Shown here: positions 11,308 to 27,968 of the stretch, in pieces | How positions within the stretch are numbered: the first letter of the stretch is position 1 | How the letters are laid out: every line of letters begins with the position of its first letter | Assembly: GCF_029222705.1 (NCBI RefSeq) | Contig: NZ_JARGZF010000001.1 | Location: forward strand, 88,437-120,436 | Origin: Knoellia sp. p5-6-4 | GTDB lineage: Bacteria; Actinomycetota; Actinomycetes; Actinomycetales; Dermatophilaceae | Length of the DNA stretch: 32,000 nucleotides | Direction: 5' to 3' | Program-made: the position numbers and the translations under genes | Notes under the pieces: model-generated | Seen by the model: the letters and a program-made list of their open reading frames with translations, nothing else | Database searches by the model: none | What the model was told of the DNA's origin: nothing

Positions 11308-12327
11308 TCAGATCCAGCCGCGGCGCTTGAAGAGCACGTAGAGGGTGAGGGCCAGCACCGAGATGACCACCACGCTGGCAACGAAACCGGAGGTCTTGCC
11401 GATGCCGGGGTAGGCGACGTTCATGCCGAACCACCCCGTCACCGCAGTCGGGACCGCGATGATCGCTGCCCAGCCCGTCAGCTTCTTCATGACGACGTTC
11501 AACCGGGCGTCCTGCAACGCGATGTTCGTCTCGAAGACCGTCGTGACCATGTCGCGCAGAGACTCGGTCCACTCCGAGGCGCGCAGGACGTGGTCGTACA
11601 GGTCGGTGTACCAGCCGTCGAGCTCGCCCTGCCCCCCGCCGAGGTCGGACTGGTGCCGCATGACGGTGTTGACGACCTCACGCATCGGCAGCACGACCCG
11701 GCGCAGCTGGACCAGCTCCTTGCGCAGCCGGTAGGTCCGCTCCTGGAGCCGACGGGTGCCGCTCTCGGCGAAGAGGGCGTCCTCGAGCAGCTCGATCGCG
11801 TCGTCCATCGCCTGGATGGTGTCGAAGTGCCCGTCGACCACGACGTCGAGCAGGCCGTGCAGGAGGGCGCCGGAGCCCTGCTTGACGAGGTCGGGGTGGT
11901 CACTCCACCGCTGGACCACCTCGTCCATGTCGAACCGGTCGTCGGGGCGCACCGTCACGACACCGCCGGGCAGGACGAACACCGACAGCCTCTGCAGCTC
12001 GAGCCGCGACTCCACCGCTCCGTGCTGCCCGTTGTCGCCCGAGGGGAGGCGGGTGGCGTAGACGGTCACGAAGGTGTGGGTCGCGTGCCGGGTGGCCTTC
12101 GGCCGCTCCGCCGACGCCACGGAGTCCTCGACCGCGTGGGGGTCCAGCAGGAGCTCCTGGGCCAGCTTGTCGAGCCCTGCCCGGCTCGGGCCGCACAGGT
12201 CAACCCACACCAGGCAGTCGTGGTCCTGCAGGTGGTCCGAGAGCTCGTCCAGCGGGAAACCGTCCACGACGTCCCCCGACCGGCGCCACAGCCTGGTGCG
12301 GACGCTGTGCGCGATCTCGGTGGTCAC
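11308..12327 (-). CDS. corA: CorA-family divalent cation (Mg2+/Co2+/Ni2+) transporter
   Basis: The C-terminus has two TM helices and the signature WFGMNVAYPG (GMN motif). I prefer GTG 12327 (VTTEIAHS...) with GGGAG 9 nt upstream. The track start 12345 abuts a hairpin. Confidence 0.85.
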   Translation of the reverse strand: MTTEIAHSVRTRLWRRSGDVVDGFPLDELSDHLQDHDCLVWVDLCGPSRAGLDKLAQELLLDPHAVEDSVASAERPKATRHATHTFVTVYATRLPSGDNGQHGAVESRLELQRLSVFVLPGGVVTVRPDDRFDMDEVVQRWSDHPDLVKQGSGALLHGLLDVVVDGHFDTIQAMDDAIELLEDALFAESGTRRLQERTYRLRKELVQLRRVVLPMREVVNTVMRHQSDLGGGQGELDGWYTDLYDHVLRASEWTESLRDMVTTVFETNIALQDARLNVVMKKLTGWAAIIAVPTAVTGWFGMNVAYPGIGKTSGFVASVVVISVLALTLYVLFKRRGWI

Positions 12328-12347
12328 ACCGGCAGTCTCCCGCACAG

Positions 12348-12414: not shown

Positions 12415-13041
12415 TCAGCGGTGGAGCTCCGGGCCGTGGGCGCAGCACTCGGGCAGCTCGGCGTGCAGGATCTCGATGGCCCGCATGGCCTTGTCGACGA
12501 AGCGGGGCGAGGACTCGATGACGAACCGGCGCGGGTGGGCCGACCACGCCTGCAGGATGCGCTCGTCGATCTCGGCCGCCGCCTCCGGTGACTCCGTGCG
12601 GAGCGGGTTGCGATGGTTGTAGCCGCGTCCCGGGGACGGCGTGCGCAGGTGGATCACGGCGCCGTAGCGCTCCAGCTCGCGCCGCGGGTCGGTGTGCACC
12701 GAGGCCCAGAATTCCGCGGGGTCTCCCGGCCAGTAGGCAACCCCGTCCACCGTCCCACGGTCGCACAGCACGATGGCCGGGCGGTGGGCGTCACCGACCA
12801 CCTCGAGCTCACGCTGCACGTGGAAGATGGCGCGCTGGGAGGCCTGCCGGCAGGCGGGGTCCTCCTCCCTCGGGAAACCGCCCCCGAACACCACACCGGC
12901 GGACTCGGGGAGGATGTGGACGTGGCGGCACACCGCGTGCCGGAGCAGCTCGAGCAGTGCAGTCTTCCCTGCTCCGGGGCCGCCGGTCACCACCACCCGG
13001 CGCGGCGTGTGCTCACTCGTGCAGGAACAGGCGACCGTCAT
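12415..13041 (-). CDS. P-loop NTPase (AAA_28/NadR-like ATPase family) with Cys-rich termini
   Basis: Walker A is VVVTGGPGAGKTALLELL and Walker B-like is AIVLCDRG. SD GGAGGAG precedes ATG 13041. The N-terminus is MTVACSCTSEH and the C-terminus ELPECCAHGPELHR. Confidence 0.8.
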   Translation of the reverse strand: MTVACSCTSEHTPRRVVVTGGPGAGKTALLELLRHAVCRHVHILPESAGVVFGGGFPREEDPACRQASQRAIFHVQRELEVVGDAHRPAIVLCDRGTVDGVAYWPGDPAEFWASVHTDPRRELERYGAVIHLRTPSPGRGYNHRNPLRTESPEAAAEIDERILQAWSAHPRRFVIESSPRFVDKAMRAIEILHAELPECCAHGPELHR

Positions 13042-15318: not shown

Positions 15319-16107
15319 TCAGGCCAGGACGGCTGCCGGCGCCGGGAACGGCGTGCTGTTGACCACGGCGAGCTGCCGCAGGGTCTGGCGGCACAGGGCA
15401 GCCAACCCGCGACGGTCGAGCCGCTCGCACACCCATTCCCAGTGGAGCGAGCACCAGTCGCCCGCCGAGACGCCCCCGGCGAGCCCGAGGCCGTCGACCC
15501 GCAGGAGGGCCCGCTCCTCGCGCTCCTCGCCCAGGTGCAGGCGACGGCCGTCCCAGCACAGCGGCCGCGACCGGACGACCGCCTCCGGCCCCCGGACCTC
15601 CATCACGTGTCCCCAGCGCACGCGGCAGCGGTCGAGCACGTGCAGCGGCTCGTCCACCCGGCCCTCGCGGAGCAGCCCCAGCCAGGGGTAGACACCGAAG
15701 ACGTGGAACGAGTGGTGCGGCACCGCACCGGCAGGCACCGCGTCGACCAGCCTCGGCCAGGAACGCCGGCCGGCACGGTCGCGGAAACGCGCCTCGAGCG
15801 AGTCCCCGAGCAGGCGTGGACCCACCCGGTCCAGCAGCTCGTTCCCGACCCAGTAGGCCTCGACGACGCGCGCGTCGAGGGGGTCGCCGATCCGGTTGGC
15901 TGCGGCGATGAGCTCGAGGTAGGGCCACGCGCCCTCGAACCCGCGGGCCAGCCGTCGCAGGTCCGGGTCGTCGACCCCGGCCGCGACCTGCTCGAGCAGC
16001 TGCTGCGCCGCGTCGGGCCCGCAGTAGCCGAGCGCGTTCGGCGGGTAGGCGTACGCCGCGAACCGCAGGGCCCCGTGCAGCCCCGACGCTGCGCTACCCG
16101 CCGGCAC
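15319..16107 (-). CDS. DUF6390-like protein of unknown function with a HypC-like C-terminal half
   Basis: GTG 16107 lies inside track ORF 15319..16302 and overlaps the eamA-like stop by 14 nt. The N-terminal motif is LRFAAYAYPPNALGYCGPD. The C-terminal segment CRVRWGHVMEVRGPEAVVRS...GDWCSLHWEWVCERLD parallels the HypC encoded at 17023..17313. Confidence 0.65.
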   Translation of the reverse strand: MPAGSAASGLHGALRFAAYAYPPNALGYCGPDAAQQLLEQVAAGVDDPDLRRLARGFEGAWPYLELIAAANRIGDPLDARVVEAYWVGNELLDRVGPRLLGDSLEARFRDRAGRRSWPRLVDAVPAGAVPHHSFHVFGVYPWLGLLREGRVDEPLHVLDRCRVRWGHVMEVRGPEAVVRSRPLCWDGRRLHLGEEREERALLRVDGLGLAGGVSAGDWCSLHWEWVCERLDRRGLAALCRQTLRQLAVVNSTPFPAPAAVLA

Positions 16108-17026
16108 GGACCGTCCCGCTCTCAGGCACGGGCCGCGCCGCGCCCCTCCAGCCGAGCCACACCGCCGCCGCACCCCCGAGCAGCAGTGTGGCGAGCCACA
16201 ACGCCTGGGGCGCCAGCGCGGTGCCGTTGACGGCGGCGCCCAGGCCGGCTGTGACCGGTGCCGCGAGCACCAGCACGGCCGTGACGTCGACAGCTTGCGC
16301 ACGGGCGAGGGCGGCGAACCACGAGGCGACGTAACCGGCGAGCAGCAGACCGGTGACCAGAACCCACCCGAGCTGCTCCCGGGTCATCGACCCCAGGGCA
16401 CCCGCCTGGCCGGTGACCGCGAGCCAGGCCACGAGGGCCACCGAGCCCAGGCCCATCCGTGCCACGCCGACCGTCCACGACGACACGTCGTCCAGCAGCC
16501 ACTTGGCGACGACGACCTCCACCGACCACAGCAGCGTCGCGGCGAGGATCATGACGCCGGCGGCGCCGAGCTCGCCGGGCAGGCCGCCGGCCAGGCCCAC
16601 CTGCCCGACGACCAGCAGGCCGATGGCGACCCAGTGGCCCCACTGCAGGCGTTCCTTCAGCAGTGGAAGGGCCAGCAGCGCCACCCAGAGCACGAGGGTC
16701 TTGTGGATGAAGGCGGCCTGGGGCGACGACGCCCGGCTGAGCCCCTCGAAGAACAGCACGAACGGCACGCTGCCGCCGATCACCCCGACCGCCGCGAGGG
16801 CCAGCCACCGGCCGCGCGTGCGCGGCACGGTCAGGCGCGCCCCGGCTCGGGAGCCCAGCCCGACGACGGCGAGCAGCACGGCCGCCGCCACGAGGTTCTT
16901 GGCTGTCGTGTACACCGTGGCGTCGTCGAAGGCCTTGACGCCGTAGGCGTTCACGAAGACCGAGAAGCCGCTGATCGCGGCCGTGACGAGCGCGAGCAGT
17001 ATGCCGGTGCGGCGGGTGGTGTTCAT
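16094..17026 (-). CDS. EamA/DMT-superfamily transporter (10-TM type)
   Basis: 310 aa and highly hydrophobic, with two EamA-like halves (GILLALVTAAISGFSVFVNAYGVK...; ILAATLLWSVEVVVAKWLL...). ATG 17026 overlaps the hypC stop as ATGA. Confidence 0.85.
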   Translation of the reverse strand: MNTTRRTGILLALVTAAISGFSVFVNAYGVKAFDDATVYTTAKNLVAAAVLLAVVGLGSRAGARLTVPRTRGRWLALAAVGVIGGSVPFVLFFEGLSRASSPQAAFIHKTLVLWVALLALPLLKERLQWGHWVAIGLLVVGQVGLAGGLPGELGAAGVMILAATLLWSVEVVVAKWLLDDVSSWTVGVARMGLGSVALVAWLAVTGQAGALGSMTREQLGWVLVTGLLLAGYVASWFAALARAQAVDVTAVLVLAAPVTAGLGAAVNGTALAPQALWLATLLLGGAAAVWLGWRGAARPVPESGTVRAGG

Positions 17027-17313
17027 GGCTCCCTCATCTGTTCGGTGGGCTTAGCCTGTGCGGCGGTCCCTGCCTCTTCTGTGGTCTCTGCGAGCCGCGA
17101 CGGTGCGGTGGACCGCAGCGCTGCGGCCTCGTACGCCTCCTGCGGCGACAGCCGGCGCAGGGCGAAGCCGGAGTGGCACAGCAGCCAGTCGCCCGGAGCG
17201 ACGGCCCCGTCGAGGGTCAGCAGCGACACCGTCGCGGTGCGCACGGACGACCGCACCACGGCGGTGCCCACGTCCGGGGCCTCGAGCACCTCGGCCAGCT
17301 CACCCAGGCACAC
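17023..17313 (-). CDS. hypC: Hydrogenase assembly chaperone HypC/HupF family
   Basis: The GTG start at 17313 gives (M)CLGELAEVLEAPDVGTAVVRSSVRTATVSLLTLDGAVAPGDWLLCHSGFALRRLSPQEA. It has the N-terminal Cys2 and the GDW..H.GFA motif. Confidence 0.8.
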   Translation of the reverse strand: MCLGELAEVLEAPDVGTAVVRSSVRTATVSLLTLDGAVAPGDWLLCHSGFALRRLSPQEAYEAAALRSTAPSRLAETTEEAGTAAQAKPTEQMREP

Positions 17314-17851
17314 GGGCGGCTCCTTCCGGCGTGGTGGTCCCCTCCGACGCCTCCCGCACGACTGCGAGGACGCGGTCGACGGCGGTCGGCACGGCGGCGG
17401 CGACGGCGGGCGACAGTGGCGCGCCGTGGTCGAACGACGCCGCCTCGACACCCACCAGCACCACCCGGTCGGGCAGCCGGCGCAGCGCCCTGGCCAGCTC
17501 GACGGCGGAGGCCAGGCCGAACGCGTGGGTGCCACCGCGACCGGTCCGTCCCCAGGCAGACTCGCGCAGCCGCTCACCCAGCGCGCCCGTCTCGAGCACC
17601 GTCAGGGTGCCGGGTTCCGAGCCGGAGCGGACGGCGTCGACCACGACGGCGAGCTCGTGGCCCGACCACAGCTCGACCAGGTCGGTGGGGTCCTCGTGTG
17701 CGACGACGTCCACGCCCGGCACGTGGCACGCCGCGACCCCTCGCGCCACGACGACCCCCACGGCGTCATCGCCCCGGTGCGGGCTGCCCAGCCCCACCAC
17801 GAGCGGTCGGGAGGTGACCGGCCCCGTCGGAGCACCCCTCACGCCCGTCAT
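17300..17851 (-). CDS. [NiFe]-hydrogenase maturation endopeptidase (HycI/HoxW/FrhD family)
   Basis: ATG 17851 overlaps the large-subunit stop as ATGA. Sequence includes LVVGLGSPHRGDDAVGVVVAR...VVAHEDPTDLVELW...AVVVDAVRSG...PGTLTVL...THAFGL. Confidence 0.8.
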   Translation of the reverse strand: MTGVRGAPTGPVTSRPLVVGLGSPHRGDDAVGVVVARGVAACHVPGVDVVAHEDPTDLVELWSGHELAVVVDAVRSGSEPGTLTVLETGALGERLRESAWGRTGRGGTHAFGLASAVELARALRRLPDRVVLVGVEAASFDHGAPLSPAVAAAVPTAVDRVLAVVREASEGTTTPEGAARVPG

Positions 17852-19158
17852 CCCCGGTCCACCGTGAGGTCGAGGAAGTGGGTGGCACAGGAGATGCACG
17901 GGTCGTAGTTGCGGATGGCCTGCTCGCAGCGGTGCTGCAGCGCGTGGTCGTCGAGCTGGGACCAGCTCTGCACCATGGTGCGCAGGTCGGCCTCGACACT
18001 CGGCTGGTTCTGCGAGGTCGGCGGCACGATCTGCGCGTCGCGGATGATGCCCTCGTCGTCGAGGACGTAGCGGTGGAACAACACCCCTCGGGGCGCCTCG
18101 CTGGCGCCGAAGCCCTCGCCCGCCCGGGGCGGGACGGGCACGCTGGCCGGGCCGCTGCCCGTCCAGCCGTCGATGATGCGCAGCGCCTCGTGGTAGGCCT
18201 CCACCAGCTCGACGGCCCGGACGATGATCGAGCGGAACGGGTTGCGGCAGGTGTCGCCGAGCCCGGCCTCGCGGGCCGCCTCCCGGGCCACGTCGCTGAG
18301 CCGGTCGGCGTTCAGGGAGTAGCGGGCCAGCGGGCCCACGACGTAGGGGTCGGGTGAGCCGTCGAGGCGCGCGTGCAGGGCGTTGGAGTGGGGGACGTGG
18401 AACTCCTCGATGTGCTTCGTGAAGTCGCGCACGGCGAAGGCCCCGCCGGAGGACGTGACGACGCTCCCGGCCTCGATGGGGTACCCGCTCTCGGCCCGCA
18501 GTGCGAGGTACTCGTAGGGCTGCTCCAGGTCGGGGAACTCGAACCCGGCCACGAGCTTCACGGTCTGCACCGCCTCGTCGAGGGCCCGCTGCAGCCGGGG
18601 CCGCACGGCCCGCAGCTCCTCGCGGGTGGGGTACCGGTAGAACCCGCCGACCTTGACGTTGACGGGGTGCACCGATCGACCGCCGACGGTGTCCATGAGG
18701 TCGTTGCCGGCCTTCTTGATCCGCAGGCCCCGCTCGACCACGTCGGGGTGGTCGGCAGCCATCTCGACCGCGCCGTCGTAGCCGAGGAAGTCGGGCGCGT
18801 GCAGGAGGAAGACGTGCAGGGCGTGGCTCTCGATCCACTCGCCGCAGTACAGCAGCCGCCGCATGAGCCGGATCTCCTCCGGCACCTCCACCCCGCAGGC
18901 GTCCTCGACCGCCCAGCACGAGCTCATCTGGTAGGCCACCGGGCAGATCCCGCAGATGCGCGCGGTGATGTCCGGCGGCTCCGTGTGGGCGCGGCCGCGC
19001 AGGAACGCCTCGTAGAACCGGGGCGGCTCGTAGATGCGCAGCTGCACGTCGGTGACCGTGCCGTCGCGGTACTCGATGTGCATCGCCCCCTCGCCCTCGA
19101 CCCGCGCCAGGGTGCCGACGTGCATCACCTGGCCGCCGTCGGTGAGCTTGTGGCTCAT
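17848..19158 (-). CDS. [NiFe]-hydrogenase large (alpha) subunit, group 3b type
   Basis: Start at ATG 19158 (MSHKLTDGG...) inside track ORF 17848..19935. The N-terminal Ni-binding motif is [10 protein letters not shown] and the C-terminal motif is DPCISCATH, followed by a short cleavable tail FLDLTVDRG. Confidence 0.9.
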
Positions 19159-19997
19159 GCGTCCTCCCCCTCTCCCGCCGGTGGCCCTCCCTGCTCGTGC
19201 CGCTCGCTCTCCCGGCGGAACGGCTCCGAGGCCGCGTTGAAGGTCCGGAAGATGCGCACTACCTCGGGCTCGCTCATCCCGAGCTCTCTGAGCCCGTGGG
19301 CGATCGAGACGGTGTTGGGTGTGTCCTGGGGGCCGAAGCAGCCGTAGCAGCCGCGGTCGAAGCTCGGGCACAGGGCACCGCACCCTGCCTGGGTGACCGG
19401 CCCGAGGCACGGCGTCCCGTGGGCCACGGTCACGCAGACGTTGCCCCGCCGCTTGCACTCGACGCACACGCTGTGCGACGGGATCCGCGGCTTGCGGTCC
19501 TGGATCGACGCGGCGAGCACCTCGAGCAGCTGGCGCTTGTTGATCGGGCAGCCGCGCAGCTCGAAGTCGACGGAGACGTGCGCCGAGATCGGCGTGGAGC
19601 GCGACAGCGTCGACAGGTACTCCGGGTGGGCGTAGACGATCGAGCGGAACTCGGCGACGTCGCCGAAGTTGCGCAGCGCCTGGATCCCGCCGGCCGTGGC
19701 GCACGCGCCGATGGTGATCAGCCGGCGCGACACCTGGCGCACGTGCTGGATGCGCTCGAGCTCCTCCGGGGTCGTGATCGAGCCCTCGACCAGCGAGACG
19801 TCGTAGGGCCCCTCCACCACCGCGCGGGTGGCCTCGGGGAAGTAGGCGATCTCCACCTCGCCCGCGAGGCGGAGCAGCTCGTCCTCGCAGTTGAGCAGCG
19901 TGAGCTGGCAGCCGTCGCAGGAGGCGAACTTCCACACGGCGAGCGTCGGCCGCGTACGTTCGGTGGCCGTTGCGTCGGATCGGTCGGTGACGGTCAT
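19155..19997 (-). CDS. [NiFe]-hydrogenase small (delta) subunit, group 3b type
   Basis: ATG 19997 (MTVTDRS...). Fe-S cysteines occur in [16 protein letters not shown] and [12 protein letters not shown]...[27 protein letters not shown]. The stop overlaps the large-subunit start as ATGA. Confidence 0.9.
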
Positions 19998-19999
19998 GG

Positions 20000-20863
20000 C
20001 TAGAGCTCCGCCCGGGCCATCAGGGGCTCGAGGACGTCGTAGGTGAGCACCGGGCCGTCCACGCAGAGGAAGTACTCGCGCAGCTGGCAGTGGCCGCAGA
20101 GGCCGACCCCGCACTTCATGTTGCGCTCCATCGACAGCCGCAGCCGCGCCGGGGGGACGCCGCGGGCGCGCAGGGCCATCGCGGCATACCGCATCATGAC
20201 CTCCGGCCCGCACACGAGGGCCAGCGTGTTCACGGCGTCGAAGCCACCCCGCTCCACCAGCTGGGTGACCAGGCCGACCCGCCCCTGCCAGGCGTGCTGT
20301 CCGTTGTCGACGGTGACCTGCACGTCGACGGCGTGGTCGGCGGCCCAGCGGCGCAGGTCGTCACCGAAGAGGATGTCCTCGGGGGTGCGGGCGCCGTAGA
20401 GCAGCAGCACGCGGCCGTAGGACGCGCGGTCGGCGCACACCTCGAGGACGGCCGGGCGCAGGGGTGCCAGGCCGATGCCGCCGGCGACGAAGACGACGTC
20501 GCCACCGCGTCCGGACGACACCTCCCAGCCGGTGCCGAACGGACCTCGTATGCCGAGCTCGGCGCCGGGTGCGGCGTGCACCAGCGCCCGCGTGACCGCG
20601 CCGACGTTCCGAATCGTGTGCTCGAGGACCGCGGGCCGGGCCGGGTCGCCGCTGATGGAGATCGGCGCCTCCCCCGCGCCGAACGCCTGCATCATCGTGA
20701 ACTGGCCGGCGGCGAACGGCATCGGCACCCCGTCGACCGGCTCGAGCACGAGCGTCCAGGTGTCGCGGGTGTCCTGCCGGTGGCGCCGGACGACGAACGG
20801 CCGGGGCAGGAAGGGGTCGCGCGGGCGCGCTGCCCGGGAGCCGGCACCGGCCACCGCCGTCAT
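20000..20863 (-). CDS. Hydrogenase gamma subunit: FAD/NAD(P)-binding oxidoreductase with a C-terminal 2Fe-2S motif (PyrK/HydG-like)
   Basis: ATG 20863 (MTAVAGAG...). It carries [28 protein letters not shown] and C-terminal [12 protein letters not shown]. Confidence 0.85.
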
Positions 20864-21321
20864 ACCGGGGCTCCGTAGACGTCGAGCAGGCGGATGCGCG
20901 CGGAGTGCAGCCTGGTGGACATCACCTGCACCACCCGCTGCAGCATCGCGTAGCCGACAGCCGGGTCGGTGTCGCACTTGTCGCGCAGGCAGGCGCCGTC
21001 GAAGGCGATGGCGCTGGTCTCCTCGGTGGCCCGCGCGTCGAAGAGCCAGCGGTAGGGCGGCACGAGCCACGACCAGCCCACGACGTCGTCGGCGTGGGCG
21101 CTGTCGACGACCACCGGCGAGCCTGCGGGCGCATGCACCTCGAGGCTGACCCGGCCGTGCCGGATCACGTAGAAGGTGTCCGCCGGCTCGCCCTCGTGGA
21201 ACAGGTGCTGGCCCGGGTGGAAGTGCACGTTGACGGCGCACCCCGCGACCAGCGCGACGAGCGGCTCCGGCAGACCCGCGAAGAAGGGGTGCTGGGGAAG
21301 GTACTCGGCGATGGTCTGCAC
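20860..21321 (-). CDS. Stand-alone cyclic-nucleotide-binding (cNMP/CAP effector) domain protein, no DNA-binding domain
   Basis: 153 aa. Sequence: [52 protein letters not shown]...[37 protein letters not shown] 21321 has GGAGA 8 nt upstream. The stop overlaps the gamma-subunit start as ATGA. Confidence 0.8.
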
Positions 21322-21334
21322 GGCGGTCGTCTCC

Positions 21335-22549
21335 TCACTCGGGCGCCGGGTCGGGCGGGCTCAGGGGTGCCGGGAGGTTCGAGCCGCGCACCCCGCGCAG
21401 AGCGGCCGCCTCCTCGGTGATGTCGATCCCGGCCGGGCACCAGGTGACACAGCGGCCACAGCCGACGCACCCCGAGGACCCGAACTGGTCGTGCCAGGAA
21501 GCGAGCTTGTGGGTCATCCACTGGCGGTAGCGGGACCGGGTCGAATCGCGGACGGTGCCGCCGTGGATGTAGGAGAAGTCCGCGTTGAAGCACGAGTCCC
21601 AGACGCGGTGGCGGTCGGCGGACTCCCCGCTGAGGTCGGAGACGTCCTCCACCGTGGTGCAGAAGCACGTGGGGCACACCATGGTGCAGTTGGTGCAGGC
21701 CAGGCACCTCGAGGCGACGTCGTCCCACCGGGGGCTGTCGACGCTGGCGTAGAGCAGGTCGCGGATCCCGTCGGTGTCGAGCCGGCGCCCCATCCGCTGC
21801 GCCGCCTGGTCGGACACGGCACCTGCCGCGGCCAGGTCGCCCGCGGCGGCCGCCGTCGCCCCGATCTCGTCGAGCAGGGCCCCACCCCGCTCGCTGCCGA
21901 CCTCGACGACGAACCGGTGCTCCGGTTCCAGCAGCTCGGTGAGGGACAGGTCGAACGGCGCCCCGCGGCCCTGCTCGGGCCGCGGTCCGGTGCCCATCGA
22001 CACACAGAAGCAGGTGCCGCCGGGGTCGGAGCAGGCGACCGCGATGACGAAGGCCCCCTCGCGGCGCTGGGCGTAGTGCGCGTCGGTGAAGCCGCGGCCC
22101 GTGAGCACGGTGTCGTGGATGCCGACCGCGCTGAGGTCGCAGGAGCGCACGCCGAGCAGGGCAGTGGGCCGCTGGTCGGCGCCGTCCTCGTCCTCCACGT
22201 GGGTCCCGCCGGTCGGGCTGCCCGGCGCGCCACCGACCTCGAAGCCGGTGCCGCCCGCCGTGCGCTGCCCCCGCCACAGCAGCTCGTCGGTCGGGAAGAA
22301 CACCGGTTTGGCCGACTGCGCCCCGGCGGCGAACCCGAAGAGTGCCTCGTCGTCCCGACGGCGCAGGCGATATCGGCCGGGCTCCTGGTCGTCGCCCCAG
22401 CCGCGCGGCAGGTCGGCCACCGCGGTGATCTCCGCGTTGACGACGGCACCGCCTCGCACCGTGGGGCCCATCACGCGGTAGCCGCGCGCGACGAGGGCGT
22501 CGAGCAGGGACTGCAGGCCGGTCTCGTCGATCAGCCGTGTGTCCACCAT
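21335..22549 (-). CDS. Hydrogenase beta subunit: 4Fe-4S cluster protein (HydB/AsrA-like)
   Basis: 404 aa. Cys clusters are [16 protein letters not shown] and [13 protein letters not shown], plus [14 protein letters not shown]. Confidence 0.85.
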
Positions 22550-22694
22550 GACGCCCCCCGCTAGGAGCCCAACGAGATCTCTCCCTCACCACGGTAGGCG
22601 GGTTCGTCCCCCGGCGAGGGCGGTTTGCCAAGGCCCGGGAAGAGGTCGTCGCCGCGGCGGTGCCGGATGCCCTGGCTGGAGTTACGCTGGCCGG

Positions 22695-23660
22695 GTGAGC
22701 CTGCTCACGGGACGGACCGGGCAATCCGGGAGCCACCTTGCGCTCGTCTACCACGGCGTCGACGAGTTCGTCGGCCGGGTGAGCGGGTACGTGCGCGCCG
22801 GGCTGGCCCTCGACGAGCCGGTGCTGGTGCTGGCCTCGCGCGAGAAGGTGGCGCGGGTGCGCGACGAACTGGGGGCCGTTGCGGCAGCCGTGGAGTTCGC
22901 CGATGCCGAGGTCGGCTACCACCCCCAGCTCCGGGCGACCTACGAGTGCCTGGACTACATCCAGCGACAGGGGGGCCGCCGCTCGCGGGTGGTGGCCGAG
23001 CAGGCTCTCGGCAGGCGCTCGCCCATGGAGGTGGCCGACTACCTTCGGATGGAGTCCGCGGCCAACGTGGTCTACCAGCCCTACCCCGTCGAGATCCTCT
23101 GCCCGTACGACGCCTCAGCCCTGAGCAGCGACCTGATCGAGGCGTGTCACCGCACCCACGCGGAGCTGCTGGAGGACGACGGGGCCCGGCGAAGTGCCTT
23201 GTTCGTCGACCCGCACCGCTTCATCCCGGACAGCACGACGGTGCCTGCGCCCCCGGCCTCCGCGCCCGCCATCAGCTGCCTCACGGGAGCCGACGTCCCC
23301 AGCGCGCGCCGCTTCGCGCGCGAGGAGGTGCGGCGGGCCGGGCTGCCCGACGACGTGGTCGACGACGTGGTCCTCGCCGTCAGCGAGCTGGTGTCCAACG
23401 CGCTCACCCACGGTCGTCCGCCTGCCCGCCTGGCGGTCTACACCGAGCACGCGCCGGGGCAGGTGCCGGTGCTGGTCTGCCACGTCCGCGACGACGGGGG
23501 CGGCCCCGTAGACGCGCTCGCCGGCTACGCGCCGCCCGCGGACCTCGGCACCAACGGCCGCGGCCTGTGGATGGCCCGGCAGCTGTGCGACTCCGTGGAG
23601 GTCAGCACCGACGGTGGGACGACCGACGTGCGCGTGCTGTCGCTGCTCCCGACTGGCTAG
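22695..23660 (+). CDS. MEDS-domain sensor fused to an RsbW-type HATPase_c anti-sigma kinase domain
   Basis: GTG 22695 lies inside track ORF 22539..23660. The N-terminus HLALVYHGVDEFVGRVSGYVRAGLALDEPVLVLASREKVARVRDEL is MEDS-like. The C-terminus is ARRFAREEV...LAVSELVSNALTHG...VRDDGGGP...GRGLWMARQLCD. Confidence 0.75.
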   Translation: MSLLTGRTGQSGSHLALVYHGVDEFVGRVSGYVRAGLALDEPVLVLASREKVARVRDELGAVAAAVEFADAEVGYHPQLRATYECLDYIQRQGGRRSRVVAEQALGRRSPMEVADYLRMESAANVVYQPYPVEILCPYDASALSSDLIEACHRTHAELLEDDGARRSALFVDPHRFIPDSTTVPAPPASAPAISCLTGADVPSARRFAREEVRRAGLPDDVVDDVVLAVSELVSNALTHGRPPARLAVYTEHAPGQVPVLVCHVRDDGGGPVDALAGYAPPADLGTNGRGLWMARQLCDSVEVSTDGGTTDVRVLSLLPTG

Positions 23661-24172: not shown

Positions 24173-24994
24173 TCAGGGCCGAACGTCCCCCAGATCGAGT
24201 TCAGGTTCGATGCGCGCCCAGACCAGCTTGCCGCCGTCGCCGGTCGGCAGCGCCCCGCAGGCCTGCGACAGCGCCTCGACCACGACGAGCCCTCGACCGT
24301 TGAGCGAGTCGTGGTCGGCGTCGACGGTGGCCGGTGCGTCGCGGGCCTGGTCGCGCACCCCCACCCGCACCATCGCCACCCCGTCGCTGACCAGCACCAC
24401 GCGGACCTGCTCGGCCGTGTGCTGCACCGCGTTCGCGGCCAGCTCACTGACCACGAGGGCGCCGGCATCCGCGCAGGGGGCGACGTGCCACTCCTCGCAG
24501 GTGCGAGCGAGGAACCGACGGGCTGCCCCCACCGAGGCGGGGTGCCGCGGCAGGGCCAGTTCGGCCCGGAGCAGGTGTGGTCCGTCGGCGACCAGGGCGG
24601 TGGCAGCCAGCATCGAGGACGCGAACGCCAGGCGTGACGTCCCGAGCCGCTCCCGCAGCGCCTCCCGCACCTGCGCGTTCCCACAGGCCACCACGACAGG
24701 CGTCTCGGGCCAGGCGTCGGCGTGCCGGGTCAGGGGCGACAGCGAGGCGACCGAGGTGTCGGTGAGCTCGTCCATCCCGTCCGGCAGCACGAGCACGACA
24801 CCGTCGGGGCACTCCGCGAGCGCGGTCTGGACGGCGTGGTCGACGTCGTCGCCGAGGTCCTCGAGGGGCGCGTCGGCCTCCACGATCCAGACGTCGCCAA
24901 AGGGGTAGACCCTCAGGCCGCCGGCTCGGCCGACGGTCGCCGGTGCCGCCCAGTTCGCACCGGCCCACGAGCGTCGCGCACCCTTGCCACTCAT
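24173..24994 (-). CDS. Fusion protein: STAS-like domain + RsbW-type HATPase_c kinase domain (paralog 2)
   Basis: 273 aa. Sequence: MSGKGARRSWAGANWAAPA...VWIVEADAPLEDLGDDVDHAVQTALAECPDGVVLVL...PVVVACGN...ARRFLARTCEEW...LVVSELAANAVQHT...VRVGVRDQA...GRGLVVVEALS. It is collinear with 5118..6005. Confidence 0.75.
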   Translation of the reverse strand: MSGKGARRSWAGANWAAPATVGRAGGLRVYPFGDVWIVEADAPLEDLGDDVDHAVQTALAECPDGVVLVLPDGMDELTDTSVASLSPLTRHADAWPETPVVVACGNAQVREALRERLGTSRLAFASSMLAATALVADGPHLLRAELALPRHPASVGAARRFLARTCEEWHVAPCADAGALVVSELAANAVQHTAEQVRVVLVSDGVAMVRVGVRDQARDAPATVDADHDSLNGRGLVVVEALSQACGALPTGDGGKLVWARIEPELDLGDVRP

Positions 24995-25139
24995 CGAATC
25001 CCATCTCGCAGCCTTGCCCTGCCGCCTCGAACGCTACTCCCGACCCGAGATGTCCGCCCGGGATAGCGCCGCCGGTGGCAGAGTGGGCGGTGCGACCACG
25101 GGCTCGCCCGTGTGCGGACCGAGGCACGGGGAAGGGAGC

Positions 25140-27968
25140 ATGGAGACCTCCACGACCCAGTCCGACCCCTCCCTGCTCGAGGCCTCGTCCGTGGCGAGCG
25201 AGCTGGGCTCGGACCCCGCGACCGGGCTCAGCCCCCAGGAGGCGGCTGCGCGTCTGGCCAGCGTGGGGCCCAACGAGATCGCGTCCGCTCCCCCGGTGCC
25301 CGCCTGGCGCCGCTTCCTCGAGCACTTCCGCGACCCGCTGGTCTACCTGCTCCTCGCCGCGATCGTCGTCTCGCTCGTCGCGTGGGCGTTCGAGGGCGCC
25401 GAGGGGCTGCCGTTCGACGCGATCGTCATCGCGGTCATCGTCGTGCTCAACGCGGTGCTCGGGCACCTCCAGCAGGCGCGGGCCGAGCACGCGGTCGAGG
25501 CGCTGCAGCGGATGAGCGCGACCACCGCCACGGTGGTGCGCGGCGGGGCGCAGGTGCGGGTGCCCACCCGCGAGCTCGTGCCCGGCGACATCCTCCTGCT
25601 GGCCGAGGGCGACACCGTCGCTGCCGACGCCCGGCTTCTGAGCGCCTCGACCTTGAAGGTCTCCGAGGCCTCGCTCACCGGGGAGAGCGAAGCGGTGCTG
25701 AAGGATGCCGCGCCGCTGCGCGCCCCCGCCGCACTGGGCGACCGGCTCAACATGGTGTTCAACGGCACGGCGGTCAGCCAGGGAGTGGGACGCGCCGTGG
25801 TCACCGACACGGGCATGGCCACCCAGATGGGGCAGGTCGCCGACCTGCTGCACGTTACCAGGGAGGACCCCACCCCCCTGCAGCGGGAGATCGCCCGGGT
25901 GGGCCGGATGCTCGGCACCGCGGTCGTCGTCATCGCCCTGGTCGTCATGACCACGGTGTTCCTCTTCTTCGGCGTCGAGAGCGCCGACGACGTCGTCACC
26001 ACCCTGCTGCTCGGGGTGTCCCTCGCCGTCGCCGCCGTGCCCGAGGGGCTCCCCGCAGTGTTGTCCGTGGTGCTCGCCCTCGGGGTGCAGCGCATGGCCG
26101 CGCACCACGCCATCGTCAAGAAGCTGTCCTCGGTCGAGACGCTGGGGTCGGCCTCGGTGATCTGCTCCGACAAGACCGGCACCCTGACCAAGGGCGAGAT
26201 GACAATCGGCCGGGTCGTCACCCCGCTGGGTGAGGTCAGTGTGACCGGGGCGGGGTACCGGCCGGAGGGGGACCTCCTCCACGACGGCGCCGATCTCGAG
26301 GAGCACGACCCGCTGTGGCTCGCCACGGCATACGTGCTCACCGGCGGCTGCCTGGCCAACAACGCGGTCCTGCAGCAGGAGGCGAACGGTGACTGGGCCA
26401 TCCAGGGCGATCCCACGGAGGCGGCGTTCCTGGTGGCGGAGGCCAAGCTCGGCACCCACCAACGGCGGGCGGCCCGGTTCAGCCGGGTGGCCGAGATCCC
26501 GTTCACCTCCGAGCGCAAGCTCATGACCAGCCTGCACGCGGACGCCTCCCGCGACGGCATGATCGCCGTGGTCACCAAGGGCGCACCCGACGTGCTCCTC
26601 GACCGGTGCACGCGGATCCAGGTGGGCGGCGACGTGGAGCCGCTGGACGCGGGGTGGCGCGCGCGGGTCCTCGACGACGTGGAACGCCTGTCGGGAGAGG
26701 CGTTCCGCACCCTCGCCGTGGCCTACCAACCCCTCGAGGTGACGGCGACCCCCGCCCTCGAGGAGTCCCTCGAGCACGGCCTCGTCTACGCCGGCATGGT
26801 GGGCATCATCGACCCACCGCGCCCCGAGGCCGCCGCCGCGGTCGGGGAGGCCCACCGGGCAGGGATCAGGGTCGTGATGATCACCGGTGACCACCCCCGC
26901 ACCGCGGCAAGGATCGCCCGAGACCTCGGGGTGGTCTCGTCAGCGGAGTCGCTGGCCGTCACGGGCACCGAGCTCGACGCGCTCGACGACAAGGGCTTCC
27001 GGGCCGCGGCCCGGGAGCGCAACGTCTACGCCCGCGTGACGCCGCGCCACAAGCTGCGCATCGTCGACGCCCTGCAGGCCGAGGGCCAGGTGGTCGCGAT
27101 GACCGGTGACGGTGTCAACGACGCACCTGCCCTGAAGTCGGCCGACATCGGGATCGCGATGGGCCAGACCGGCACTGAGGTCACCAAGGAAGCCGCGAAG
27201 ATGATCCTCGCCGACGACAACTTCGCGACGATCGTCCGCGCGGTCCGGGAGGGCCGCGACATCTTCCTCAACATCAGGAAGTTCCTGCGCTACCTGCTGT
27301 CGTCCAACATGGGCGAGGTCATGACGGTCTTCCTCGGCGTCGTGCTGGCCGGCGTCATCGGCCTCTCGCGGGGTGACGGCGCCGTCGTGCTGCCGCTGCT
27401 GGCGACGCAGATCCTCTGGATCAACCTGCTCACCGACAGCGCGCCGGCCCTGGCGATGGGCATGGACGCCGAGACCGAGGACGTCATGAGCCGGCCCCCG
27501 CGCACCCTCGAGGAGCGGGTCATCGACCGCCGGATGTGGGGCGGGGTGCTCTTCATCGGCCTGGTGATGGCGCTGGCCTCCCTCGCCGCGATCGACCTCT
27601 ACCTGCCGGAGGGCCTCCTCGCGGGGACCCACGACCTCGACAACGCGCGCACCGCGGGCTTCACCGTGCTGGTCCTGGCGCAGCTGTTCAACGCGTTCAA
27701 CGCACGGTCGGAGACGGGCACGGCGTTCCACCGCCTCTTCGCCAACCGCTGGCTGTGGGGTGCGGTGGCCCTGTCGGCGGCGCTGCAGGTGGCCGTGGTG
27801 CACCTGCCCGTGCTGAACCGCGCCTTCGGCACCGTGCCGCTGGCCCCCGGGCAGTGGGTGGCCTGTGTCGGGCTCGCCAGCACGGTGCTGTGGGCCGGCG
27901 AGCTGCGCAAGCTGGTGCTGCGCCTGACCGCACCGTCGGGCCGGGGTGGGGTCAGGTCAGCGGGATGA
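25140..27968 (+). CDS. P2-type (SERCA/CtpF-like, probable Ca2+/cation) P-type ATPase
   Basis: ATG 25140 after GGGGAAGGGAG. Motifs: TGES, PEGLP (M4), DKTGTLT, KGAPD, MITGDH, TGDGVNDAPAL. 942 aa with about 10 TM helices. Confidence 0.9.
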   Translation: METSTTQSDPSLLEASSVASELGSDPATGLSPQEAAARLASVGPNEIASAPPVPAWRRFLEHFRDPLVYLLLAAIVVSLVAWAFEGAEGLPFDAIVIAVIVVLNAVLGHLQQARAEHAVEALQRMSATTATVVRGGAQVRVPTRELVPGDILLLAEGDTVAADARLLSASTLKVSEASLTGESEAVLKDAAPLRAPAALGDRLNMVFNGTAVSQGVGRAVVTDTGMATQMGQVADLLHVTREDPTPLQREIARVGRMLGTAVVVIALVVMTTVFLFFGVESADDVVTTLLLGVSLAVAAVPEGLPAVLSVVLALGVQRMAAHHAIVKKLSSVETLGSASVICSDKTGTLTKGEMTIGRVVTPLGEVSVTGAGYRPEGDLLHDGADLEEHDPLWLATAYVLTGGCLANNAVLQQEANGDWAIQGDPTEAAFLVAEAKLGTHQRRAARFSRVAEIPFTSERKLMTSLHADASRDGMIAVVTKGAPDVLLDRCTRIQVGGDVEPLDAGWRARVLDDVERLSGEAFRTLAVAYQPLEVTATPALEESLEHGLVYAGMVGIIDPPRPEAAAAVGEAHRAGIRVVMITGDHPRTAARIARDLGVVSSAESLAVTGTELDALDDKGFRAAARERNVYARVTPRHKLRIVDALQAEGQVVAMTGDGVNDAPALKSADIGIAMGQTGTEVTKEAAKMILADDNFATIVRAVREGRDIFLNIRKFLRYLLSSNMGEVMTVFLGVVLAGVIGLSRGDGAVVLPLLATQILWINLLTDSAPALAMGMDAETEDVMSRPPRTLEERVIDRRMWGGVLFIGLVMALASLAAIDLYLPEGLLAGTHDLDNARTAGFTVLVLAQLFNAFNARSETGTAFHRLFANRWLWGAVALSAALQVAVVHLPVLNRAFGTVPLAPGQWVACVGLASTVLWAGELRKLVLRLTAPSGRGGVRSAG

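Follow-up and report, generated by a model that had tools for sequence, protein, structure and literature searches.

A DUF6390 protein from a group-3b [NiFe]-hydrogenase operon of Knoellia sp. p5-6-4 carries a probable, very diverged homologue of the maturation factor HypC

Group 1h and 3b [NiFe]-hydrogenases allow soil Actinomycetota to oxidize atmospheric H2 and to produce H2 under hypoxic conditions, and group-3b enzymes are the main hydrogenases of Patescibacteria. Maturation of the 1h and 3b enzymes has been assumed to follow the HypA-F scheme of Escherichia coli. On the HypCD scaffold, residues C2 and H51 of HypC are the proposed ligands of the cofactor iron (PMC12134894); the cysteine of HypC and HupF is a free N-terminal residue, which inserts into a cavity of HypD and into the active site of the hydrogenase large subunit (PMC11565642). 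The source of the iron in the [NiFe] cofactor has been called unresolved (PMC10847431), and the known extra maturation factors, HoxL, HoxV, HupF and HupK as well as HypX, all come from Pseudomonadota (PMC12134894). The locus described here lies in a stretch of 32,000 nucleotides (nt) from Knoellia sp. p5-6-4, hereafter the window. A hydrogenase operon on its minus strand includes a gene for a 262-amino-acid (aa) protein of DUF6390, a family whose function is given in Pfam as unknown. The C-terminal domain of this protein is very probably a true, if very diverged, homologue of HypC, as judged from sequence comparisons at family level. The gene and the parts of the protein discussed below are the following.

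15319-16107, minus strand: DUF6390 gene, 262 aa, GTG start, TGA stop (15319-15321); Pfam PF19927
15628-16107, minus strand: N-terminal all-helical domain, residues 1-160, as predicted by AlphaFold2 (AF2); holds the near-invariant Cys29, His132 and His135
15355-15627, minus strand: probable HypC-homologous domain, residues 161-251; predicted beta-barrel at 164-230, into which an extra hairpin is inserted, and after it a helix at 232-251
15388-15627, minus strand: residues 161-240, the stretch flagged in an earlier note on this DNA; translation checked; CRVRWGHVMEVRGPEAVVRS...GDWCSLHWEWVCERLD...
15625-15627, minus strand: codon of Cys161, aligned to the essential N-terminal Cys2 of HypC
15442-15444, minus strand: codon of His222, aligned to the conserved His of HypC (E. 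coli H51)
15427-15429, minus strand: codon of Cys227, which has no HypC counterpart
16021-16023, minus strand: codon of Cys29, motif PPNxLGYCGP
15703-15714, minus strand: codons of His132 and His135, motif PHHxFHV

The earlier note, which was made from the letters of the window alone, had proposed that the C-terminal half of the DUF6390 protein resembles the HypC encoded two genes upstream, with a Cys at the position of the essential HypC Cys and with a GDW..H motif in common. Its coordinates and strings proved right, and the resemblance is borne out once whole families are compared. Members of DUF6390 down to 33% identity were gathered by searching 1.84 billion cluster representatives and were aligned both over the family (67 sequences, alignment A1) and over the C-terminal domain (43 sequences, A3); for HypC, 58 sequences were drawn from 80 related genomic loci. 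Profile-profile comparison of the C-terminal domain with HypC by hhalign, a check suggested in the same note, gave probabilities of 95.0% (E 3.8e-8) and 95.4% (E 1.7e-8) in two runs, over 63-64 collinear columns. Controls remained low: 0.2% for the N-terminal domain against HypC, 0.6% for the reversed C-terminal domain and at most 6.2% for 30 column-shuffled C-terminal domains. The hhalign alignment pairs Cys161 with Cys2 of HypC, GDW..H with the HypC GDW..H, and the helix that follows with the C-terminal helix of HypC. When a hidden Markov model (HMM) of the domain was run against 177,635 distinct PDB sequences, the best three matches were HypC proteins (2z1c, E 0.0015; 3vyr, E 0.002; 3d3r, E 0.036), with both conserved HypC segments aligned in order; in this search and in hhalign alike, His222 falls on the conserved His of the HypC GDxVLxH motif (E. 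coli H51). A Pfam scan of the 43 C-terminal domains returned weak matches to HupF_HypC (PF01455) for 12 of them, the best at E 3.8e-5, and no other family was matched by more than one member. The three independent sequence tests thus agree, and the Cys and the His singled out by their alignment are each kept in more than 99% of members.

The N-terminal domain presents a different picture. No relative of it was found among PDB sequences, either by phmmer with the full protein or with the full-length profile, and Foldseek returned no match; it is a novel domain, without detectable relative by sequence or fold. The phmmer hits of the full protein in PDB, such as allophanate hydrolase and All4940, were at chance level and were set aside.

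Predicted by AF2 from the 67-sequence alignment, the protein consists of two tightly packed domains (predicted local distance difference test, pLDDT, 94.3; predicted template-modelling score, pTM, 0.92). Helices of the N-terminal domain occupy the region between residues 12 and 161, seven strands (164-230) come next, and after these a long helix (232-251); the C-terminal domain modelled alone takes the same fold (pLDDT 92.7). In the model Cys161 closes helix 152-161 of the N-terminal domain, the barrel has an extra hairpin (~183-192) and a longer loop ahead of its last two strands, and the chain runs on for only about 10 residues beyond the C-terminal helix. A barrel and then a C-terminal helix, as modelled here, is the HypC layout. 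Weak Foldseek matches were nearly all to OB-folds, among them ribosomal uS17, the S1 domain of eIF2-alpha, PriB and the OB domain of RsgA. With the domain-only model E. coli HypC (2ot2) ranked fifth (probability 0.94, template-modelling score 0.49), at no improved significance. The earlier note had foreseen a HypC-type OB-fold and had suggested its prediction by AlphaFold: the confident AF2 model does have the barrel and the helix, and superposition by Foldseek on 2ot2 or on other OB-folds fell short of significance. The predicted structure is therefore consistent with the sequence result and would not by itself prove a link to HypC.

Conservation was measured over ~340-390 sequences that range from Actinomycetota to Patescibacteria. 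Six Cys/His residues are nearly invariant: Cys29 (99.4%), His132 (97.7%) and His135 (95.8%) in the N-terminal domain, Cys161 (99.7%) at its junction with the barrel, and His222 (99.4%) and Cys227 (98.3%) beyond it. Cys161 and His222 are the counterparts of Cys2 and His51 of HypC; the other four, which have no HypC counterpart and bear on function, had escaped the earlier note. It is a reasonable inference that the six form a shared metal site between the two domains, because all of them are placed by the AF2 model at helix ends, in loops or at strand ends. The N-terminal domain also holds many near-invariant residues other than Cys and His, within the motifs PPNxLGYCGP, AWPYL, VVEAYWxGN and PHHxFHV.

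The surroundings of DUF6390 genes were compared over 83 loci, made up of L001, 80 GTDB species genomes and two Patescibacteria contigs (L082 and L083). The 80 genome loci are those with the best-scoring matches and are skewed to Actinomycetota; genes in the related loci were called by tblastn together with a heuristic based on GC content at third codon positions (GC3). A hypC gene lies within 1.5 kb of DUF6390 in 62 of the 83, and a [NiFe] large-subunit gene is present in 64. Where at least 9 kb of sequence is available on both sides, one or both of these genes are found in 54 of 58 loci. The genomic neighbourhood thus ties DUF6390 to [NiFe]-hydrogenases and hypC, which upholds the maturation context assumed in the earlier note. 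Two hydrogenase groups, 3b and 1h, are represented. The window order protease-HypC-EamA-DUF6390 recurs with group 3b in Nakamurella, Nocardioides, Acidimicrobiia and Dormiibacterota, and the triad HypC-EamA-DUF6390 recurs in Patescibacteria. In Arthrobacter and its relatives, and in some Chloroflexia, DUF6390 ends a group-1h cluster (hypB, hhyS, hhyL, NifU/Rieske protein, DUF5947, DUF6084, protease, hypC), directly after hypC or convergent to it. DUF5947 and DUF6084, which are themselves of unknown function, stand between the NifU/Rieske and protease genes of the 1h clusters in ~25 loci (for example L036:13546-14981, minus strand).

A second feature of the neighbourhood, which bears on function and is absent from the earlier note, is the near-constant adjacency of a transporter gene. 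DUF6390 has one no more than 300 bp away in 67 of the 83 loci, and with the limit set at 1.5 kb the number rises to 70. These comprise 41 with an EamA permease, 17 with an ATP-binding cassette (ABC) importer of the Peripla_BP_2/FecCD/ATPase kind, 11 with an SBP_bac_11/fused double-permease/ATPase importer (PhnU2/Fbp-like), and one in which only the ATPase was matched; the three kinds of transporter are mutually unrelated. The transporter-adjoining loci listed individually are L019, L024-L026, L030, L034, L036-L040, L044, L046, L049, L055-L057, L062, L065, L068, L069 and L072-L079. On two independent contigs (L085 and L086) EamA and DUF6390 are fused (P0218), beside hydrogenase genes. Other members are fused to DNA-binding domains, namely PadR (P0193, and P0177 in L084), an XRE-type helix-turn-helix (HTH; P0221) and MarR (P0145). 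These three partners are C-terminal and EamA is N-terminal; a HypC fragment is a further fusion partner among these members, to which P0241 also belongs, and in P0267 the N-terminal domain occurs by itself, linked to HEAT repeats and to a domain binding cyclic nucleoside monophosphates (cNMP). In the Patescibacteria contigs L082 (8930-9121) and L083 (8876-9082), the HypC beside EamA-DUF6390 has no conserved His (GDWVLTN... and GDYILAQ...), and the neighbouring DUF6390 retains the equivalent residue. Over 10 kb, L082, L083 and L085 showed no hypD, hypE or hypF gene.

Set beside HypC/HybG (PF01455; 2z1c, 3vyr, 2ot2, 3d3r), DUF6390 has, as modelled, a probably homologous beta-barrel and C-terminal helix; it shares the conserved Cys where strand 1 begins, the GDxVxxH motif with its His, and a place in hydrogenase maturation clusters. 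HypC, however, is a single domain of 70-100 aa with an N-terminal Cys, whereas the 262 residues of DUF6390 include 160 additional ones at the N terminus, and its Cys is internal. DUF6390 also has an additional hairpin inside the barrel, Cys227 as an extra conserved residue, and W and R in the place of the HypC motif C-x-x-x-P, and it fails the HypC thresholds of Pfam and of TIGRFAM (TIGR00074). Because it lacks the family-HMM score, the N-terminal Cys and the single-domain size, DUF6390 is a new architecture with a HypC-type domain and does not belong in the HypC family. Another parallel is offered by HupF and HoxL, HypC paralogues that help to mature O2-tolerant hydrogenases in Pseudomonadota. 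Like them, DUF6390 is a second HypC-type protein beside a canonical HypC, and it is tied to hydrogenases made in aerobes, in its case those of groups 1h and 3b in Actinomycetota. Yet HupF keeps the N-terminal Cys and has a short C-terminal extension (PMC12134894), while DUF6390 adds a large N-terminal domain with Cys/His residues of its own; its members are spread over Actinomycetota, Chloroflexota and Patescibacteria and have a link to transporters. The earlier note had suggested a second, HupF-like scaffold. This part of it is not supported as worded: Cys161 is internal, at the end of an N-terminal-domain helix, and the protein is extended by 160 aa at its N terminus, where HupF has a short C-terminal tail. 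With the nickel metallochaperones HypA, HypB and SlyD and their importer partners there is a possible analogy only, in that a Cys/His-rich cytoplasmic protein is encoded near hydrogenase and uptake genes; hand-over of metal to the maturation machinery might be common to both. No sequence or fold similarity to these proteins was found, and DUF6390 is without an NTPase domain.

Homology, predicted fold, residue conservation and gene linkage to hydrogenase, hypC and transporter genes are what the comparisons show. The HypC-homologous domain, in which the Cys/His pair is kept, the novel domain with Cys/His residues of its own and this linkage lead us to infer that DUF6390 is an accessory factor of [NiFe]-cofactor assembly. 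We lean, on balance, towards a cytoplasmic protein of two domains that would assist the maturation of [NiFe]-hydrogenases and would hold a metal or cofactor site at the interface of these domains. In such a protein the C-terminal ~90 residues, as a diverged HypC homologue, would keep in Cys161 and His222 the pair proposed to bind iron. Cys161 would lie at the junction with the helical domain; the latter would provide Cys29, His132 and His135, and the barrel Cys227, so that the six residues could together make up the putative site. DUF6390 might take up an iron or nickel species, or an intermediate of the cofactor, and might exchange it with the HypC encoded next to it, with HypD or with the large subunit. 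The species might arrive through the adjoining transporter, which would be EamA in group-3b operons and an ABC importer elsewhere. Any particular ligand or partner one might name is doubtful, and the direction of transfer, like the site itself, is presumed from the features above.

Several results weigh against this interpretation. In pairwise comparison the two proteins of the window hardly resemble each other: BLASTP of the DUF6390 C-terminal domain against the window HypC gave no alignment at E<=100, the HMM built from the 58 HypC sequences scored the DUF6390 protein at E=17, and the C-terminal domain of the window protein did not match PF01455 even at E<=10. The structural search alone would be insufficient for a link to HypC, because Foldseek with the full-length and the domain-only AF2 models found nothing in PDB at E<=0.001; with the domain-only model, crystal structures of HypC lay outside the top 50. 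DUF6390 also lacks the free N-terminal Cys on which the HypC mechanism turns (PMC11565642) and cannot act exactly like HypC or HupF, because its Cys is buried mid-chain and theirs is N-terminal and free. By tblastn, 11 of the 83 loci have neither a hydrogenase nor a hypC gene in the flank (in one of these, L064, a convergent hypC was found by Pfam scan), and where the eleven were scanned their neighbours varied. As to the transporters, every NCBIfam match fell far under its cut-off and no substrate could be assigned. Finally, the few fusions to DNA-binding domains fit a role in sensing better.

At the pairwise level, then, the resemblance to HypC seems to exceed chance only weakly. The Smith-Waterman score of 45 was attained by 0.15% of 2000 shuffles, in an alignment that spans the GDW..H..RL segment only. 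Of the two strings that the earlier note had matched, both AVVRS and GDWxxxH do occur in the two proteins; AVVRS had to be given up as a meaningful match and is put down to chance, because its position is conserved in neither DUF6390 nor HypC. One could ask whether the likeness as a whole is convergence on a generic small OB-fold, with coincidental Cys/His matches and no mechanistic relation. The insignificant pairwise similarity would agree with this, as would the Foldseek ranking, in which ribosomal uS17 and other OB-folds stand as high as HypC, all of them non-significant. However, HypC alone among the OB families is singled out by three sequence-profile methods, the alignment is collinear through the two motifs conserved in HypC and on into the C-terminal helix, and in 62 of 83 loci hypC is a neighbour of DUF6390. 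Because the profile results pick HypC, mere convergence of fold is unlikely, and the full proposal, coincidental residues included, strikes us as very improbable.

Two other proposals accept a HypC-like domain and give it a subordinate part. In one, DUF6390 would be mainly a ligand- or metal-sensing module, which would signal whether the transported substrate is available or in what state hydrogenase maturation is; the stand-alone protein would act via a partner, the HTH-fused forms would be one-component regulators, and the HypC-like barrel would be just a binding fold. The PadR, XRE-type and MarR fusions speak for it, and the PadR fusion adjoins a convergent hypC. In Arthrobacter-type loci DUF6390 stands divergently to the operon of an ABC importer, as regulator genes typically do, and the operon in the window is flanked by a MEDS/HATPase protein and a PAS-GAF-PP2C phosphatase. 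But of the 150 best cluster representatives only a handful are HTH fusions, and the great majority of members, the window protein included, have no DNA-binding domain; DUF6390 is usually last in the maturation block and translationally coupled to hypC or EamA, and its fusion to a permease suggests hand-off of a substrate over signalling. We think it improbable that sensing is the main function. In the other proposal DUF6390 would be an enzyme, whose helical N-terminal domain would use its Cys/His site to process an imported compound or to make a cofactor ligand, for example by stripping an imported chelate of its metal or by generating the CO ligand, while the HypC-like domain would merely dock onto HypC or HypD. 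The many near-invariant residues of the N-terminal domain other than Cys and His do look like an active site, and three unrelated transporter families adjoin the gene. Nevertheless, no similarity to an enzyme family emerged from sequence searches (Pfam, PDB, NCBIfam) or from fold (Foldseek), and no cofactor-binding motif was recognised. Moreover, DUF6390 is absent from E. coli-type systems, which also need CO, and therefore is not a general solution to that need. An enzymatic role has, in our estimate, little likelihood.

It is tempting to carry the accessory-protein interpretation further and to imagine DUF6390 and its adjacent transporter as a dedicated supply line for the [NiFe] cofactor, so far unrecognised. 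DUF6390 would then be either a factor that donates a ligand or a metal chaperone, whose metal would be iron or, by way of an imported chelate, nickel, and it would load the HypC/HypD scaffold; the arrangement would span Actinomycetota, Chloroflexota and Patescibacteria. This extension is a long shot. In the small genomes of Patescibacteria, where the HypC next to it has lost the conserved His, DUF6390 might also take on some of what the scaffold canonically does. An extra protein that is widespread and encoded next to hypC is a new candidate where a source of cofactor iron and additional factors are needed, and a domain of unknown function is brought into a functional context in which it can be tested.

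The DUF6390 reading frame itself is well supported. The protein matches PF19927 with 322.7 bits (cut-off 25; E 1.9e-96) over profile positions 4-240 of 244, and 4829 of the 8000 candidates scored matched it at E<=0.001. A spurious open reading frame (ORF) in ~74% GC DNA (72-75% in the window) is ruled out by the Pfam score and the thousands of homologues. Its relatives include P0001, a 262-aa homologue that is 96% identical and covers 100% of the protein, and the DUF6390 of Pedococcus cremeus, which is 91% identical. NCBIfam has no model for the family and gave no match for the window protein. A literature search on 'DUF6390' found no paper naming the family, and in the literature on 3b/hypC/EamA gene sets no description that mentions the DUF6390 gene was found; Jaffe et al. 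2020 noted no more than that some neighbourhood families of the candidate phyla radiation (CPR) resemble hypC. Two Patescibacteria members bear the JGI name 'hydrogenase maturation factor', so that at least one annotation source already ties two members of DUF6390 to hydrogenase maturation.

The remaining genes of the operon, from the beta-subunit gene down to EamA, are the following.

21335-22549, minus strand: beta subunit, 4Fe-4S (Pfam Fer4_22), of the group-3b-type [NiFe]-hydrogenase
~20869-21321, minus strand: cNMP-binding protein, located by tblastn with the Nakamurella orthologue
20000-20863, minus strand: gamma subunit, NAD-binding; Pfam NAD_binding_1/DHODB_Fe-S_bind
19155-19997, minus strand: [NiFe] small subunit; Pfam Oxidored_q6
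17848-19158, minus strand: [NiFe] large subunit; Pfam NiFeSe_Hases
17848-22549, minus strand: the whole block of structural genes of the group-3b-type [NiFe]-hydrogenase; gene order identical in L001
17300-17851, minus strand: hydrogenase maturation endopeptidase of the HycI family; Pfam HycI, E 3e-11
17023-17313, minus strand: hypC, 96 aa, GTG start and then Cys (MCLGELAEV...); Pfam HupF_HypC PF01455, E 1.3e-10
16094-17026, minus strand: EamA (DMT-family) permease, between hypC and DUF6390; Pfam EamA, E 6.7e-25

The subunit set is that of a group-3b hydrogenase. The genes are tightly packed, successive ones overlapping by 4-14 nt from the small-subunit gene through DUF6390, whose start overlaps the EamA stop by 14 nt. 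No hypA, hypB, hypD, hypE or hypF was found among the window ORFs scanned. The HypC of the window is itself somewhat unusual: it scores under the cut-off of TIGR00074 (E 2.5e-7) and reaches only 41.7 bits against PF01455, and its N terminus, MCLGELAEV, is without the usual Pro of the MC(L/I)(G/A)(I/V)P motif, as in its close actinobacterial orthologues. HypC proteins linked to group 1h read MCLGIPG, unlike this group-3b-linked one. The small gene for a cyclic-nucleotide-binding domain inside the operon, between the beta and gamma genes, has the same place in Nakamurella (L001 4801-5265).

A gene for a PAS-GAF-GAF-SpoIIE (PP2C) phosphatase (13085 to ~15250, minus strand) begins about 70 nt 3' of the DUF6390 stop, and a gene for a MEDS + HATPase_c_2 protein, anti-sigma-kinase-like (22539-23660, plus strand), lies divergently upstream of the operon. 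The two look like a partner-switching regulatory pair around the hydrogenase genes; the pair is not conserved in Nakamurella. Close to the operon are also genes for a P-type cation ATPase (24984-27968, plus strand), a CorA-type Mg/Co/Ni channel (11308-12345, minus strand) and an AAA_28 ATPase (12415-13041, minus strand).

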